Below are positions 12,554 through 19,197 of a DNA stretch of 19,197 bases, piece after piece (positions within the stretch are counted from its first letter, which is position 1; each line of letters begins with the position of its first letter). The notes beneath the pieces are model-generated. The model worked only from the letters and a program-made list of their open reading frames with translations, was not told where the DNA came from and did no database searches. Source of the stretch: a virus (Duplodnaviria; Heunggongvirae; Uroviricota; Caudoviricetes); the IMG/VR virus record IMGVR_UViG_2667527789_000020, positions 1 through 19,197 of that record. The stretch is one strand, 5' to 3'. The translations under genes were made by a program, and so were the position numbers.

Positions 12554-12912
12554 TTAATCGTATCAAGCTGGAGCACATCCTCGAATATGCCAGGCAGCAG
12601 AAGCATACTGGTCAGCATTGTAAAATTCCACCAGGGGATATGGTTGAAATCATGGAGATTGCCATGCGCAAGGCTGGCAATTCTCCGGTAACTCCGGATG
12701 GTTGGATAAGCTGTAGTGAGCGAATGCCGAATACCAAAACAGCCGTTCTTGTTGCCGTGGAGTTTGACAGGAAAGGTGACTGGCGAATGAAATGGGCTAC
12801 TTACATCCCGGGGCATCATGACGCTAATGATGGGTGGATAATTCCTGGTGCGTCGTGGAAACCGTCACACTGGATGCCGCTACCAGAACCGCCGAAGGAG
12901 GTGCGCCAATGA
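12550..12912 (+). CDS. DUF551-domain protein (120 aa)
   Basis: C-terminal DGWISCSERMPNT...VLVAV...W......W...SHWMPLPEPP is the characteristic DUF551 signature of lambdoid nin-region proteins. Confidence 0.65.
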   Translation: MINRIKLEHILEYARQQKHTGQHCKIPPGDMVEIMEIAMRKAGNSPVTPDGWISCSERMPNTKTAVLVAVEFDRKGDWRMKWATYIPGHHDANDGWIIPGASWKPSHWMPLPEPPKEVRQ

Positions 12913-13138
12913 GCTGGCCTGAGGCCTTCTCAAATGTTGGTATTGCAATGGCGCTGGTGGTGTATTCGATTTGCCGCTGGGGATAAAAACGGTTTGCGGG
13001 GAAAGAAGAGTTAAGTAGAATTGCTGCGGGTGCCTGAGGCTGTCTGCCTCAGGCATGAACACCAAAAGGCAGATAGAGAAAGCCCCAGTTAACATTACGC
13101 GTCCTGTAAGACGCTCAACATTAATCTGAGGCATATGG

Positions 13139-14263
13139 ATGCGGATGAAAGAATTAAATAAATTCAGAGTGATAGACCTCTTTTGTGGGGCAGGTGGATT
13201 ATCTTATGGTTTTCTTCATGGAGAGATGTCTGACTACTTTGAAAGTATCCTTGCTATTGATAATAATGCTGCAGCTATAAATACCTACAATGCCAATTTT
13301 GGTTTGCATGGAGTTCAGGCAAATATTGAGGAGTGGGCATCCAGCAATACTGTTCCTGAGGCTGATGTGGTCATAGGTGGCCCCCCGTGTCAGGGATTCA
13401 GTTTATTGAATAAGAATCGTTATGGTGATCACCGAAGAGCATTGTGGGAGCCTTATATGGATGTCATTGAGCGTTCAAGGGCTTGCATGTTCGTCATGGA
13501 AAATGTCCCCGGATTGCTGATAAGCGATGAGTTTGCGGACATTACGTTTAGAGCGAAATCCATGGGCTTTATTCTGCTTAATCCAATGGTGTTGAATACT
13601 GCTGACTATGGAGTACCTCAGACAAGAAAACGAACGATAGCAATCGGTATCAAACGAGAACTCTTCGATGAGCATAGTATTCCGGCGTTCCCGCCAGCAC
13701 CAACGCATCGTTCCCCTGATAAGGATGTCGCTTTGCCTGAATGGGTCTGTACGCGTGATGCAATTGGTGACTTACCTGCTCCTGTTGGAACTGATATTCG
13801 TAATGAACTTCCTCCGCTGAACTTACATTTTGGGCGTAATCCCACACCTGTTTCTCTGGAGCGATATAAAGCGGTTCCACCAGGAGGTAACCGTTTCGAT
13901 TTACAGAAAAAAAGACCTGATATAACCCCGGCGTGCTGGCTAAAAAAGAAATCTGGAGGGACCGATTTGTTTGGACGTCTGTGGTGGGACAGACCTTCAG
14001 TAACGATTCGTACTGAGTTTTTCAAACCGGAGAAAGGGCGATATTTACATCCGGAAGAGGATCGGCCAATAACTCATCGTGAGGCAGCGAGATTAATGTC
14101 TTTTCCTGATAATTTCATTTTTACCGGTTCAAAAACTGAGATTGCAAAGCAGATCGGGAATGCTGTTCCACCGCTATTTGCGGCAAAAATCGCACAATAT
14201 GTGTATGGAGTTTTGCAGGGACGGTATAAGAATAACATCAGTAAGAATAGTCAAGCAGCCTGA
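13139..14263 (+). CDS. DNA (cytosine-5)-methyltransferase, modification subunit of a Type II R-M system (374 aa)
   Basis: Motif I DLFCGAGG (FxGxGG), motif IV GGPPCQGFS (catalytic PC), motif VI ENV, motif X-like QIGNAVPPLFAAKIA. ATG preceded by GAGG with a 7-nt spacer. Visibly more AT-rich than the flanking phage genes. Confidence 0.9.
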   Translation: MRMKELNKFRVIDLFCGAGGLSYGFLHGEMSDYFESILAIDNNAAAINTYNANFGLHGVQANIEEWASSNTVPEADVVIGGPPCQGFSLLNKNRYGDHRRALWEPYMDVIERSRACMFVMENVPGLLISDEFADITFRAKSMGFILLNPMVLNTADYGVPQTRKRTIAIGIKRELFDEHSIPAFPPAPTHRSPDKDVALPEWVCTRDAIGDLPAPVGTDIRNELPPLNLHFGRNPTPVSLERYKAVPPGGNRFDLQKKRPDITPACWLKKKSGGTDLFGRLWWDRPSVTIRTEFFKPEKGRYLHPEEDRPITHREAARLMSFPDNFIFTGSKTEIAKQIGNAVPPLFAAKIAQYVYGVLQGRYKNNISKNSQAA

Positions 14264-14276
14264 AGGAAATCCAGAA

Positions 14277-15154
14277 ATGAATGGAGATTTGGTTGACAGC
14301 ATAGTTGGTTTTGCTGAAGCCAGAAAGGAGTTTCATGCCCAATTGTTACTGAATACGCTCACAATTAATACTGCCGGAGTTGTTAGTAACGCAGATAGCA
14401 GTAACAAAAACAGTAAAGCTATAGCAAGAGAAATTGCTCGCTTCTTGCAGGCTGAAACGATTGGTGAACGTGTTGCAGGGCAAACATCTGGTAATCAGTT
14501 TGAGAGTATCTGCGCAGAGTTTATAAAAAAACCTTTTTTAAACTCAGCCACTTACGCCCTGGGAAATGGAATGTATATCAGGTTTCTGGTAGAAACAGAT
14601 TAGAGATAGCTAAATATGAACAATATGCCCATCTTATAGCATTGGATAGTGCTGCAAAAAGTAATCCTCAGCTAGCTGCTGCACTGGGGAGTGATTATAC
14701 GATTTCACCAGATATTATTGTTGAAAGAGAACCTGAATGCGATCAAGTTATCAACAGTCCTGAATTACTGGTGGATGATTCTGTTACCCGCATGTCAGCT
14801 CTCAGGAGTTCGAATGGTGGGAAACCAATATTACACGCAAGTATTTCCTGCAAATGGACAATAAGAAGCGACCGGGCCCAGAATGCTCGTTCTGAGGCAT
14901 TAAATCTTATTCGCAACCGTAAGGGAAATCTCCCTCATGTAATGGTTGTTACTGCTGAGCCTACTCCAAGTCGTCTGGCGTCTATTGCTCTTGGTACTGG
15001 TGATATAGATTGCGTGTACCATTTTGCGCTTTATGAACTTATATCAGCAGTTGAAATACTGGGGCTCAGCGATGCAGCTGACATGCTTTCCGTGATGGTT
15101 AATGGTAAAAGATTAAAGGATATTTCTGATCTTCCCTTGGATCTTGCAGTCTGA
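14277..15154 (+). pseudogene. Type II restriction endonuclease, Cfr10I/NgoMIV-like, reading frame split by a 1-nt shift in a homopolymer region
   Basis: N-terminal piece 14277-14603 (frame 3) and C-terminal piece open from 14504 to 15154 (frame 2) overlap around an A7 tract (14525-14531) and a T6 tract (14534-14539). The C-terminal piece carries SPD-X46-SCK-X13-E (SPDIIVERE...HASISCKWTIRSDRAQNARSE), matching the PD-X46-55-K-X13-E active-site arrangement of the Cfr10I/NgoMIV family. Starts 14 bp after the C5-methyltransferase stop. Joined length is about 290 aa, typical for this family. Confidence 0.6.
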
Positions 15155-15226
15155 CATCTCTATGTAAATAGAGTCTGTCATATTTTAACTGTGATGGCAC
15201 GTCATTGACTTCAGTACATTTTTACT

Positions 15227-15252
15227 AACCTGCTTCGCGGGTTTTGTTTTTT
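15227..15252 (+). terminator. Rho-independent terminator downstream of the R-M cassette
   Basis: AACCTGC-ttc-GCGGGTT stem (7 bp with one G-U pair) followed by TTGTTTTTT. A weaker hairpin (GACA.CTCTA / TAGAG..TGTC) lies directly after the endonuclease stop at 15153-15179. Confidence 0.55.
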
Positions 15253-15324
15253 CCTGGCATTCTGGTTTACAATCCACACGCCAGCCTGAACAACTGGCAC
15301 CTGCTGCGCCAGCAGAGACAACCG

Positions 15325-15597
15325 ATGGCGCACAATACCAAACACCACAATTCTGATACCGACCCTGCCAGCAGGTACGGGCGGCGTTCTCACACATTCA
15401 AATCTGACTGGTTCCAGCATGACCCATGCACTGAAGAACAGGCCGAATGGCTGATCCAGTGTTACCGCAGGCGCGGATATGAGTTTGAGAAAGCCCTCAG
15501 CCTCGATTATCGTCACTGGATAATCTCTGTCAGGCTCCCTTATTCCGAACGCCCACCTCGTCCGTCCCGCACATTCCAGCAGCGCATCTGGAGGTAA
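15325..15597 (+). CDS. Hypothetical protein, translationally coupled to the DUF968 gene
   Basis: Stop at 15595-15597 lies 1 bp before the DUF968 ATG. The six-frame ORF starts at 15244 inside the terminator, so the internal ATG at 15325 (MAHNTKHH...) is preferred. RBS is weak and no domain is recognised. Confidence 0.4.
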   Translation: MAHNTKHHNSDTDPASRYGRRSHTFKSDWFQHDPCTEEQAEWLIQCYRRRGYEFEKALSLDYRHWIISVRLPYSERPPRPSRTFQQRIWR

Positions 15598-15598
15598 C

Positions 15599-16657
15599 AT
15601 GCGGGTATTACTTCGACCTGTTCTGGTACCGGAACTCGGGATGGTGGTCCTTAAGCCGGGTCGTGAATCAATGTCAGCATTCCATAACGGCAGAATATTG
15701 GTGGAGCCGGAACCGAAAAACATGCGCGGTCTGCCGTCCGGAGTCGTTCCCGCCGTTCGACAGCCGCTGGCAGAGGATAAAACATTACTGCCATTTTTCA
15801 GCAACGAACGGGTGATTCGTGCTGCGGGTGGCGCTGGTGCACTGTCTGACTGGTTATTACGTCACGTGAAATCCTGCCAGTGGCCACACGGCGATTATCA
15901 TCACAGCGAAACCGTTATTCACCGTTACGGTGCTGGCGCAATGGTGTTGTGCTGGCACTGTGACAACCAGCTGCGCGACCAGACATCAGAATCACTCGAT
16001 CAACTTGCTCAGCAGAATCTGGTTGCCTGGATGATTGACGTCATCCGTCATGCAATAAGCGGTACGCAGGAGAGGGAGTTATCGCTGGCCGAATTATCCT
16101 GGTGGGCGGCCTGCAATCAGGTGGTGGATGCACTACCTGAGGCAGTAGCGCGTCGTTCGCTGGGATTACCGGTGGAAAAAATCCGCTCCGTATACCGTGA
16201 GAGTGACATCGTACCGGGAGAACAGACAGCCATCAGCATACTGAAGCAGCGCACAAAAAATATTGCGCTGCCACTTCACGTCCACCAGCAACAGCCCCCA
16301 CCCCAGGAAAAGACGTTAGTAAGCATCGCCGTTGATCCGGAGTCTCCGGCTCAGTACCTCCAGCGCCAGAAACCACAACGGGAAGAGATGCCTGTATACA
16401 CGCGCTGGGTAAAAACGCAGAAATGCATGACGTGTGGCAATCAGGCAGATGATCCGCATCACATCATTGGTCATGGACTGGGAGGCATGGGAACAAAGGC
16501 TGACGATTTGTTTGTTATTCCGTTATGCCGTAAATGCCATAACGAACTACATGCCGGAGTAAAAGATTTTGAAGAGAAACACGGCAGTCAGCTGTTGTTG
16601 CTGATTCGTTTTTTAATGCACGCGAGAAATTCGGGTGTTCTGAAGTGGAAAGCATAA
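15599..16657 (+). CDS. DUF968-domain protein (YdfU-like) with C-terminal HNH-like Cys/His motif, 352 aa
   Basis: ATG preceded by GGAGG. C-terminus CMTCGNQADDPHHIIGHGLGG...LCRKCHNELH is an HNH/zinc-finger-like CxxC...HH...CxxH arrangement. Sits immediately upstream of rusA, as ydfU-like genes do in lambdoid prophages. Confidence 0.8.
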   Translation: MRVLLRPVLVPELGMVVLKPGRESMSAFHNGRILVEPEPKNMRGLPSGVVPAVRQPLAEDKTLLPFFSNERVIRAAGGAGALSDWLLRHVKSCQWPHGDYHHSETVIHRYGAGAMVLCWHCDNQLRDQTSESLDQLAQQNLVAWMIDVIRHAISGTQERELSLAELSWWAACNQVVDALPEAVARRSLGLPVEKIRSVYRESDIVPGEQTAISILKQRTKNIALPLHVHQQQPPPQEKTLVSIAVDPESPAQYLQRQKPQREEMPVYTRWVKTQKCMTCGNQADDPHHIIGHGLGGMGTKADDLFVIPLCRKCHNELHAGVKDFEEKHGSQLLLLIRFLMHARNSGVLKWKA

Positions 16658-17026
16658 ATGACCGAGCGCATAGAATTTGTTTTGCCTTACCCGCCGACGG
16701 TGAACACTTACTGGCGACGCCGTGGCAGCACATATTTTGTATCAAAATCCGGGGAGCGTTATCGCCGGGCAGTGGCACTTATTGTTCGCCAGCAGCAGTT
16801 GAAATTAAGCCTGTCCGGACGGCTGGCAATAAAAATTATTGCAGAACCACCGGATAAGCGCCGCCGTGACCTGGACAATATTCTGAAAGCACCGCTGGAT
16901 GCGCTGACGCACGCGGGGTTGTTAATGGACGATGAACAGTTTGATGAAATCAATATTGTACGTGGTCAGCCAGTATCTGGTGGACGGCTGGAAATAAGAA
17001 TTACAGAGGTGGGTGTGCATGAATAA
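16658..17026 (+). CDS. rusA: Holliday junction resolvase RusA (crossover junction endodeoxyribonuclease), 122 aa
   Basis: LPYPPTVNTYWRRRG...DKRRRDLDNILKAPLDALTHAGLLMDDEQ...GGRLEIRITEVG matches E. coli RusA (LPWPPSNNRYYR...[22 protein letters not shown]...GGRLELTITEMG), including the catalytic Asp cluster. Confidence 0.9.
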   Translation: MTERIEFVLPYPPTVNTYWRRRGSTYFVSKSGERYRRAVALIVRQQQLKLSLSGRLAIKIIAEPPDKRRRDLDNILKAPLDALTHAGLLMDDEQFDEINIVRGQPVSGGRLEIRITEVGVHE

Positions 17027-17708
17027 CCAGTATTTACAGTTTGTTCGTGAGCAACTCATGATTGCCACTGCAGATCTCAGTGGGTCGACAAAAGGCCAGC
17101 TGGAAGCCTGGCAGGAAAATGCCCTGTTCGATACAGGGCGTTACAGACGCAAAAAAATTCGTTACCGCGATGAGGTAACCGGAAAAATGATCACGCGGGA
17201 TAATCCCCCGATCCAGGGTAAACAATCACTGGCGAAAGGCTCATCAATTGCGCTGGTCAGTCCTGTTGAGTTTGCAACATCATCGTGGCGGCGTGCCCTT
17301 CTGGAACTGGAAGAACATCAGAAGGCGTGGTTGTTGTGGTGTTATGGCGGAAACATTTGCTGGGAGCATCAGATCGCGATAACGCAGTGGGTGTGGAGTG
17401 AATTTAAAACTCAGTCCGGCTCCAGAAAAATTGCAGTGAAAACGCTGGAGCGTGTGAAGAAGTTGATCTGGCTGGCGGCACAGGATGTCAGAGGATGGGT
17501 TACCGGGTGTGAGGTCTACCAGAGACAGGAGCTTGCCAGACTGTGTGGAGTTAAGCCTGATAACTGGAGCCATAATTATGCGAACTACTGGCGTGAGATG
17601 TGCGATATTTTTAAGCGTCTCGATAGAGAATCCTTGATTTGCTCCGTGAAAATAAGAGCGCAACAAAAAGCGACCTTTTCACGACGAGATATTGCAAAAG
17701 TCAATTAA
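17019..17708 (+). CDS. Putative late-gene antitermination protein Q (Qin/QuuQ-like), 229 aa
   Basis: ATG at 17019 overlaps the rusA stop (the six-frame ORF starts at GTG 17013). Position immediately after rusA and immediately upstream of a strong terminator is the canonical Q location. Family assignment is by position and size, not by recognised motifs. Confidence 0.55.
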   Translation: MNNQYLQFVREQLMIATADLSGSTKGQLEAWQENALFDTGRYRRKKIRYRDEVTGKMITRDNPPIQGKQSLAKGSSIALVSPVEFATSSWRRALLELEEHQKAWLLWCYGGNICWEHQIAITQWVWSEFKTQSGSRKIAVKTLERVKKLIWLAAQDVRGWVTGCEVYQRQELARLCGVKPDNWSHNYANYWREMCDIFKRLDRESLICSVKIRAQQKATFSRRDIAKVN

Positions 17709-17770
17709 ATCGCGTATGTTTCGTATAAATCTGATATTTTGCCGATTTTGTACACGATGGCAAAGTAAGA

Positions 17771-17797
17771 AAAAACCACCGCCAGGTGGTTTTTTTA
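17771..17797 (+). terminator. Rho-independent terminator (tR'-like) downstream of the putative Q gene
   Basis: AAAAA-ACCACC-gcca-GGTGGT-TTTTTTT: a 7-bp stem flanked by an A-run and a T7 run, 63 bp after the Q stop. Confidence 0.7.
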
Positions 17798-17919
17798 TGT
17801 CCGAAAATCTCGTCAGTACAGTAAACGCGCTGGTGGCGGTGAATACCGGTCTTTCAGCTTGCTGGCTTTTTTGACAAGAGTTATTGGTGTGTCACGTTAA
17901 CCGGAAAAGGGAAAAAGAC

Positions 17920-18117
17920 ATGCTGAAACAGCAGGATATGACCGAAACCGCCAGAGTGGTGTTTAATGAATTAAGCGTCACTGAACCGGCGACAGTCGGG
18001 GAGATTGCGCAGAATACTTATCTTTCACGTGAACGCTGCCAGTTAATACTGACCCAGCTTGTTATGGCGGGTCTGGCAGACTATCAGTTCGGTTGTTACA
18101 GACGCCTTCAGTCCTGA
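17920..18117 (+). CDS. Small putative winged-helix DNA-binding protein (65 aa)
   Basis: ATG at 17920 preceded by AAGGGAAAAAG; the six-frame ORF starts upstream at 17884. EPATVGEIAQNTYLSRERCQLILTQLVMAGL looks like a wHTH. Stop codon is embedded in a terminator. Confidence 0.45.
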   Translation: MLKQQDMTETARVVFNELSVTEPATVGEIAQNTYLSRERCQLILTQLVMAGLADYQFGCYRRLQS

Positions 18118-18127
18118 AGGCTTTTTT
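18104..18127 (+). terminator. Rho-independent terminator
   Basis: GCCTTCA-gtcc-TGAAGGC stem followed by TTTTTT. Overlaps the stop codon of the preceding small ORF. Confidence 0.65.
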
Positions 18128-18267
18128 ATTTGTGGTAAATGGGCGGCTGGTGGGTGTTAGGGGCACTCACCAGCCATCTGCTCATGCGTCCGGATCACAA
18201 GCAAACCTCAGGCCCACTGCTTTGCGCAAAAGCAGAATGAGCCTATCAGAGACAGGCTTAATGATCC

Positions 18268-19197
18268 ATGCTTAATACTGTAAAAATATCCAGTTGTGAG
18301 TTAATCAACGCCGACTGCCTGGAATTTATCCGGTCGTTACCCGAAAATTCTGTTGACCTGATAGTCACGGACCCGCCGTACTTTAAAGTGAAGCCTGAGG
18401 GCTGGGATAACCAGTGGAAGGGCGACGATGATTACCTGAAGTGGCTGGACCAGTGTCTTGCGCAGTTCTGGCGGGTGCTGAAACCTGCCGGAAGTCTTTA
18501 CCTGTTCTGTGGCCATCGCCTGGCATCTGATATCGAAATCATGATGCGTGAACGCTTCAGTGTGCTGAACCATATTATCTGGGCGAAGCCGTCCGGACGC
18601 TGGAACGGGTGCAACAAGGAAAGCCTGCGGGCGTATTTCCCCGCCACAGAGCGCATTCTGTTCGCGGAACATTATCAGGGGCCGTATCGTCCGAAAGATG
18701 CCGGGTATGAGGCGAAGGGCAGGGCACTGAAACAGCATGTGATGGCTCCGCTGATTGCTTACTTTCGTGATGCGCGTGCTGCCCTGGGGATAACGGCAAA
18801 ACAGATTGTGGATGCCACAGGAAAGAAAAACATGGTGTCGCACTGGTTCAGTGCCGGTCAGTGGCAGCTACCGAACGAAAGCGATTATCTGAAATTACAG
18901 GCGCTGTTTGCCCGGGTGGCAGAAGAGAAGCATCAGCGCGGTGAACTGGAAAAGCCCCACCACCAGCTGCTGGAGACGTATACTTCACTGAACCGGCAGT
19001 ATGCGGAACTGCAGAGTGAATATAAGCATCTGCGGCGGTATTTTGGCGTGACGGCGCAGGTGCCGTACACGGATGTGTGGACGCATAAACCGGTGCAGTA
19101 CTATCCCGGGAAACATCCGTGCGAAAAACCGGCAGAAATGCTGCAGCAGATAATCAGCGCGAGCAGTCGTCCGGGGGACCTGGTTGCAGATTTTTTC
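18268..19197 (+). CDS. DNA methyltransferase, beta class (N6-adenine or N4-cytosine), 3' end truncated by the window
   Basis: Open frame from ATG 18268 to the window end with no stop (so absent from the ORF track). DPPY motif (LIVTDPPYF) near the N-terminus and an AdoMet-binding-type motif beginning PGDLVADFF at the window edge; motif IV before motif I indicates the beta-class order. Confidence 0.85.
   Translation, partial: MLNTVKISSCELINADCLEFIRSLPENSVDLIVTDPPYFKVKPEGWDNQWKGDDDYLKWLDQCLAQFWRVLKPAGSLYLFCGHRLASDIEIMMRERFSVLNHIIWAKPSGRWNGCNKESLRAYFPATERILFAEHYQGPYRPKDAGYEAKGRALKQHVMAPLIAYFRDARAALGITAKQIVDATGKKNMVSHWFSAGQWQLPNESDYLKLQALFARVAEEKHQRGELEKPHHQLLETYTSLNRQYAELQSEYKHLRRYFGVTAQVPYTDVWTHKPVQYYPGKHPCEKPAEMLQQIISASSRPGDLVADFF

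Follow-up and report, generated by a model that had tools for sequence, protein, structure and literature searches.

Within the stretch of DNA analysed here (the window, 19,197 nt), the features of interest all lie on the + strand, and they comprise a methyltransferase gene, the two pieces of a restriction endonuclease gene, and a short homopolymer tract in which the endonuclease reading frame is broken. The methyltransferase gene (M), at 13139..14263, is intact and encodes a C5-cytosine DNA methyltransferase (Pfam PF00145, E = 3e-54), the partner of the broken endonuclease (R). A PGAP-style annotation starts it at the second ATG, at 13145, for a product of 372 aa, and at homologous loci it is annotated as "DNA cytosine methyltransferase". 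It ends 13 nt upstream of the endonuclease gene, on the same strand.

The N-terminal piece of the NgoMIV-family endonuclease is found at 14277..14603 in frame 3 and runs from an ATG at 14277 to a TAG, encoding 108 aa. The C-terminal piece, at 14504..15154, is in frame 2, which is open from 14504 to the stop codon TGA at 15152-15154. The TGA that closes frame 2 upstream (14501..14503) and the premature TAG at which frame 3, by then shifted, terminates (14601..14603) are the left and right edges of an overlap between the two open reading frames of exactly 100 bp, 14504-14603, with the coordinates that an earlier reading of this DNA, made from the sequence only, had given. That sequence-only reading had also named an A7-CC-T6 stretch as the only slippery sequence in the overlap, and in a scan of 14504-14603 it was the only homopolymer stretch, with no other run longer than 3. 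The stretch, AAAAAAACCTTTTTT, is located at 14525-14539 and consists of an A7 run (14525-14531), CC, and a T6 run (14534-14539). Comparison of alleles, described below, identifies the A7 run as the lesion, whereas the T6 run has its usual length in the window; other strains show it to be a further hot spot, where contraction from T6 to T5 shifts the frame.

Around the tract, frame 3 reads GAG TTT ATA AAA AAA CCT TTT TTA AAC. Residues 1-83 of the frame-3 piece are authentic, and past the A run this piece is out of frame as far as the TAG at 14601-14603; the frame-2 piece is authentic from the A run onward. No ATG, GTG or TTG occurs in frame 2 from 14504 until a TTG at 14642. The endonuclease gene of the window is 878 nt in length, compared to 879 nt for in-frame alleles. 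An A7 run is not unusual by count in this DNA (15 found in the window, compared to 8.3 ± 4.1 expected), and therefore the significance of the run at 14525-14531 comes from the comparison of alleles and not from composition.

Both continuations had been described as protein-like, and this was confirmed by a Pfam search. The NgoMIV_restric profile (PF09015) matched the N-terminal piece over profile positions 1-72 (E = 5e-18) and the C-terminal piece over positions 65-275 of 275 (E = 6e-104), so that the two frames when joined span the whole profile, and the way in which the matches are split brackets the frame switch, by homology alone, to about 14519-14544. By these matches, 14277-14603 and frame 2 between them specify an entire type II restriction endonuclease of the NgoMIV family. 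Members of this family have one uninterrupted open reading frame of about 290 aa; that of the window gene is interrupted by the frameshift at 14525-14531, and the gene is a pseudogene member of the NgoMIV family.

Residues 12-292 of the repaired (intact) protein align with residues 5-286 of NgoMIV (PDB 1FIU) with E = 1e-118. The FE, PD, SCK and RSE motifs, which hold the equivalents of NgoMIV Glu70, Asp140, Lys187 and Glu201, are kept in this alignment. We take these four residues to have the catalytic roles described with the NgoMIV structure (1FIU). The Glu70 equivalent is in the frame-3 piece, and the equivalents of Asp140, Lys187 and Glu201 are in the frame-2 piece (the PD...SCK...E motif). 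Because the catalytic residues are divided in this way and frame 2 lacks ATG, GTG and TTG codons before 14642, neither piece should be active alone. The high similarity to NgoMIV suggests that the specificity of the endonuclease is probably GCCGGC.

NgoMIV of Neisseria gonorrhoeae (PDB 1FIU/4ABT; PF09015) is accompanied by a C5 methyltransferase, and the window locus likewise has one, immediately upstream. In contrast to the window copy, which is interrupted by the frameshift, NgoMIV is a single chain of 286 aa. A further difference from the N. gonorrhoeae system is that the cassette type found in the window resides in lambdoid prophages of E. coli and Salmonella. Nothing specific on NgoMIV-type systems in prophages of E. 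coli came up in a search of the literature.

The comparison with homologous prophages showed that intact, single-ORF versions of the gene exist and that the A run is precisely where they differ from the window gene. A contig of another E. coli assembly (L066, GCA_043652275.1) aligned with window positions 12731-18159 with 0 mismatches and 1 gap, an eighth A; this allele has A8, Lys84 and a single 292-aa ORF. The alignment with a second contig (L065) contained 1 mismatch plus the A8/A7 gap over 6141 nt, and a third (L063) is the same prophage over 10.9 kb, also with an intact 292-aa ORF. The only indels in the 10.9-kb L063 alignment are the A8/A7 difference and one compensating pair near 18973/18975, in a divergent 3′ stretch, neither member of which is a homopolymer-length change. 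No secondary lesion was found in the endonuclease gene of the window, which has 0 other differences from its A8 counterpart. The sequence-only reading had proposed a recent single-base change in the slippery tract, and the identity with L066 save for one extra A places the frameshift in the A run. On the nature of the change, that reading is refined here: the A run stands as the frameshift site, with A8 as the ancestor and A7 as the product. The event is very recent, to the point that more than 5 kb of the window show no further change relative to L066.

We considered whether the strain is truly A8 and the homopolymer length was miscalled in a draft assembly, which we regard as quite improbable. 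Some platforms commonly produce homopolymer-length errors, the source of the window is a draft assembly (it matches the last 14.9 kb of contig JXVM01000034.1 of GCA_000948605.1, L005, with 100% identity), and the A7 of the window haplotype rests on one contig, listed for 2 samples. An example of what such errors can do is provided by the 5.3-Mb contig L046 (GCA_008122345.1), in which the methylase, the DUF968 gene and the endonuclease are all split, which suggests systematic indel errors; this contig was set aside as frameshift-ridden, and its T5 call was not counted as evidence. However, the window assembly is not riddled with homopolymer errors: no other homopolymer indel was found over 5.4-10.9 kb in comparison to L066, L065 and L063, despite the 15 A7/T7 runs in the window. 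Furthermore, numerous independent assemblies carry A7 on other haplotypes; one such contig (L007) was found in 12 samples.

The frequency of in-frame alleles was evaluated in complete E. coli genomes, in which the gene is present in 60 of 5,426 and in frame in all 60. In each of the 60, a 71-nt query around the tract matched a 72-nt stretch, within a feature annotated as an NgoMIV-family endonuclease, and at those loci that were opened the endonuclease is an 879-nt CDS encoding 292 aa. The gene is also in frame in 25 of 26 viral contigs and in 6 of 6 metagenome contigs. Among the 60 complete genomes, the tract appears to be A-G-A6 (Glu84) in 59, read directly in two of them, and is A8 in 1.

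Four natural states of the tract were found: A-G-A6 (Glu84), A8 (Lys84), A-A-G-A5 (Arg84) and the frameshifted A7. The A8 state is common in Salmonella enterica and is found in E. coli too. Codon 84 (14526-14528) is thus GAA, AAA or AGA among in-frame alleles, with a G breaking the A8 run at two positions, in two lineages. The position equivalent to residue 84 is occupied by Gln in NgoMIV, which indicates that this residue is free to vary. The G-broken tracts (A-G-A6 and A-A-G-A5) could reflect either selection for a non-slippery tract or a site that tolerates substitution.

In an alignment with the most frequent E. coli allele (ATA GAA AAA ACC), the gap in the window sequence ATA-AAA-AAA-CC falls opposite the G, and only 4 other sites distinguish this allele from the window gene. 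A direct deletion of the G, from A-G-A6 to A7 without homopolymer slippage, was accordingly our first reading, which was dropped when A8 alleles turned up, followed by the isogenic A8 contig. We now regard it as very improbable, as the A8 allele with 0 other differences shares the changes at 14576 (His101Tyr) and 15019 with the window. The window protein was also rebuilt, either with an A or with a G, and each version was looked up by exact sequence in a collection of 15 billion sequences. The A-repaired protein, with Lys84 and the window-specific Tyr101, was found as P0047, an E. coli protein on 7 contigs, whereas the G-repaired protein was absent from this collection by exact look-up.

The window haplotype has two private substitutions, 14576 C to T (His101Tyr) and 15019 T to C (synonymous). 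Because both are common to the in-frame A8 partner (P0047; L063-L067), they predate the frameshift. The window allele is therefore best read, from these alignments, as a contraction from A8 to A7, of which the true parent would be the A8/Lys84 allele.

The broken form of the gene is found beyond the window, as the exact 108-aa N-terminal fragment is present on at least 21 contigs with differing prophage backbones. In a haplotype analysis of 60 gene copies, A7 was found on four haplotypes, which are 6-21 substitutions apart from one another. The nearest in-frame allele fetched for each of these A7 haplotypes is an A8 allele, at 0, 1, 4 and 4 substitutions, and public data contain the exact Lys84 version of the protein for each of them (P0047, P0046, P0022 and P0048). 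The most divergent A7 haplotype has six private substitutions; all are synonymous in the repaired frame, which indicates that they accumulated while the gene was intact, before the frameshift. The pattern of haplotypes suggests that the run has contracted several times, recently and independently, and that the A7 copies do not descend from one old pseudogene. By rough contig counts among the listed cluster members, A7 makes up roughly 10% of the copies in the A8 lineage.

Two other explanations of the A7 haplotypes were tried and rejected. The idea that A7 is ancestral in its clade, which was raised by its presence on several haplotypes and an apparent link to 14563G, is contradicted by haplotype H05, which carries A7 with an A at 14563, and by the near-identical A8 partner of every A7 haplotype. 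A short gene-conversion patch that brought in A7 together with 14563G from another haplotype need not be invoked, since the other states of the window are already present in the isogenic A8 allele. As a separate observation, a 214-aa E. coli protein (P0028), encoded on a 217-kb contig, is a C-terminal fragment with a CTG start in frame 2 that reads "...VYKKTFF..." and has Val148 and Ser220; it probably represents a fifth A7 background.

The presence of two ORFs in at least 21 contigs, in differing prophage backbones, is also what would be seen if the endonuclease were genuinely split into two subunits encoded by conserved, independent ORFs. Homologues with two ORFs do recur, on four haplotypes, but a conserved split does not follow from them: each two-ORF allele has an A8 neighbour with a single ORF at a distance of 0-4 substitutions, and the layout is not a conserved one. 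Moreover, frame 2 has no ATG, GTG or TTG between 14504 and 14642 from which a second subunit could start, the catalytic residues are divided between the pieces, and NgoMIV itself is a single 286-aa chain. The probability of a two-subunit enzyme is in our view negligible, and the recurring two-ORF arrangement is recurrent breakage and not a conserved split gene.

The T6 run is a second site of breakage. On the common E. coli haplotype (H00), in which the A run is interrupted by G, a T6 to T5 frameshift was found: the DNA of L047-L051 has AGA6 together with T5, and the proteins P0014/P0013 read "...FIEKTFLNSATY..." at the T6 hot spot. By rough counts among the listed cluster members, no more than a few per cent of the G-interrupted lineage is T5. 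The 15-bp tract A8-CC-T6 is a recurrent mutational hot spot at which the endonuclease is inactivated and the methylase spared. The M gene is intact in 12 of the 12 A7 loci in which it is complete, and the loss of R with M intact in these loci is the asymmetry expected for a restriction-modification pair.

Knock-outs of the endonuclease were also observed outside the tract. In a metagenome contig (OBRH01000748.1) with the common E. coli haplotype, a CAA to TAA change creates a stop at Gln69, equivalent to window position 14481, and is another independent endonuclease knock-out. In three human gut metagenome contigs (L071-L073), the end of an IS1 element is inserted after nt 355 of the endonuclease, equivalent to window position ~14631; the 126-nt tail matches IS1B-family elements at 100% identity, and the 119-aa product (P0003) is found on at least 24 contigs. 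This insertion is an independent route to the loss of R with M kept intact. The reverse arrangement was seen in a viral record (IMGVR_UViG_2526164664_000010), in which the A7 run of M itself (window 13907-13913) reads A6, breaking the M frame, and the endonuclease is in frame (A-G-A6, T6) despite the broken M. Because an active R next to an inactive M should kill the cell, this record represents either a sequencing error or a silent R.

As for the genetic setting, the cassette is carried in the early-right (nin) part of a lambdoid prophage of E. coli, and the proteins are named as E. coli by their sources. The upstream neighbours of the cassette are DUF551 and Ead/Ea22-like genes, and downstream of the endonuclease there are genes for a DUF968/NinG-like protein and RusA, followed by antiterminator Q and a further methyltransferase (identical contig L005). 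The same M-R cassette (13139-15154) was found in differing lambdoid backbones (L003, L010, L053, L056, L068 and others), with DUF551, QueH, DUF977 or integrase genes as upstream neighbours and DUF968-RusA-Q, DUF1367-YbcO or NinB genes as downstream neighbours. It is hosted by E. coli and Salmonella, and the source named for a related methylase is Kosakonia. The M-R cassette behaves as a mobile, moron-like module.

Comparison of the window with complete E. coli genomes gave mosaic relatives only, with coverage of 84% or less, and a megablast search of the INPHARED phages gave no match. The exact 43-nt A7 pattern had 0 matches in genome_contigs and 0 in metagenome_contigs, and a degenerate tract pattern had 0 matches in genome_contigs; the result in genome_contigs is due to its content of species-representative genomes without the cassette. 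Within the downstream N6/N4 methyltransferase gene, positions 18531-19003 differ from L063 10256-10728 by ~25 substitutions and the compensating indel pair, whereas only 4 differences separate the two prophages over 10 kb outside this segment. This divergent cluster looks like a recombination patch.

It could be argued that the frameshift is compensated, by programmed or leaky decoding, such that enough full-length enzyme remains and the A7 allele is attenuated rather than dead. This could occur by a -1 slip on A_AAA_AAA (14525-14531) or T_TTT_TTA (14534-14540), or by the addition of an A by RNA polymerase. Frame 3 reads both heptamers in the X_XXY_YYZ register, the shift required is -1, and the natural Lys84 protein is exactly what would result from slippage on the A run or from one A added by RNA polymerase. 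There is precedent in E. coli, in that -1 frameshifting on C-AAA-AAA rescues one-base deletions in expression constructs (PMC1851650), and the concept of a "savior indel plus low-level frameshifting" has been documented (PMC5009743). On the other hand, A_AAA_AAG is far more prone to shifting in E. coli than either A_AAA_AAA or U_UUU_UUA (PMC5009743). The 80 nt past the A run (14532-14611) fold worse than shuffled sequences (MFE -9.3, compared to a shuffle mean of -15.1; z = +1.98), and thus no stimulatory structure was found there, and no strong Shine-Dalgarno-like sequence was seen upstream by eye (unscored). In-frame alleles greatly outnumber A7 in complete genomes and in viral and metagenome contigs, and the isogenic A8 allele exists. 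We consider an attenuated but working A7 allele decidedly unlikely.

In comparison to known -1 sites of E. coli (A_AAA_AAG of dnaX and those of IS elements), the window shares an in-register heptamer, A_AAA_AAA, and the -1 direction. Unlike dnaX-type sites, it has no stimulatory element and lacks the efficient AAG variant, and the two-frame arrangement is not conserved across homologues. Because no stimulatory RNA structure and no conserved two-ORF layout were found, and because an isogenic in-frame allele exists, the site is not a programmed frameshift; residual expression, if any, is regarded as incidental leakage.

Restriction-modification genes undergo on/off switching and decay through homopolymers at the contingency loci of Helicobacter, Neisseria and Haemophilus, where the tracts are usually longer than 8 nt. 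The window locus resembles these loci in having a mononucleotide run within a coding sequence, in the difference in tract length between otherwise identical alleles, and in the recurring independent contractions that strike R and spare M. Tract-length polymorphism between otherwise identical alleles has arisen repeatedly here, as A8/A7 on four haplotypes and as T6/T5 on H00. The window locus differs from classical contingency tracts in that the run is only 8 nt and in that nearly all copies are in frame in unbiased samples (complete genomes, viral contigs and metagenome contigs). We consider it unlikely, although worth stating, that A8-CC-T6 is a low-frequency contingency switch for prophage restriction in E. 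coli and Salmonella. If it were, lysogen populations would repeatedly yield restriction-OFF variants (A7 or T5) that keep methylation, the OFF state would be leaky, as a -1 slip of the ribosome or of RNA polymerase on A_AAA_AAA restores the natural Lys84 enzyme, and the A-G-A6 and A-A-G-A5 alleles would be "locked-ON" versions.

Taken together, the best explanation, to which we assign a probability of roughly 85%, is that the window contains a restriction-modification cassette in a lambdoid prophage, the endonuclease of which was recently broken by slippage from A8 to A7. The polarity is read as A8 to A7 because A8 is much more abundant and wider spread, and because the family is single-chain. 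The ancestral endonuclease gene would have had an A8 run, ATA AAA AAA ACC, encoding Ile-Lys-Lys-Thr, from which slipped-strand mispairing during replication may have dropped one A. The resulting A7 would shift the frame after codon 85, with translation stopping at the TAG at 14601. The predicted 108-aa product would keep the Glu70 equivalent and lack those of Asp140, Lys187 and Glu201, and the downstream piece would be left lacking a proper start codon. Restriction would be lost with the methyltransferase intact, such that the prophage would carry an orphan methylase.

In terms of annotation, 14277-15154 should be treated as a single frameshifted NgoMIV-family pseudogene and not as two genes, and the methyltransferase as a putatively functional orphan. 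The locus is an ordinary recent pseudogene, a new example of a known process (homopolymer slippage and the decay of restriction genes) that opens no long-standing question. Across strains, R is the part of the cassette that is lost and M the part that is kept, by way of A8 to A7, T6 to T5, a nonsense codon or an IS1 insertion, and most of the R knock-outs are concentrated in one short homopolymer stretch. The length of the tract at this site could therefore mark whether such prophages still restrict incoming DNA.
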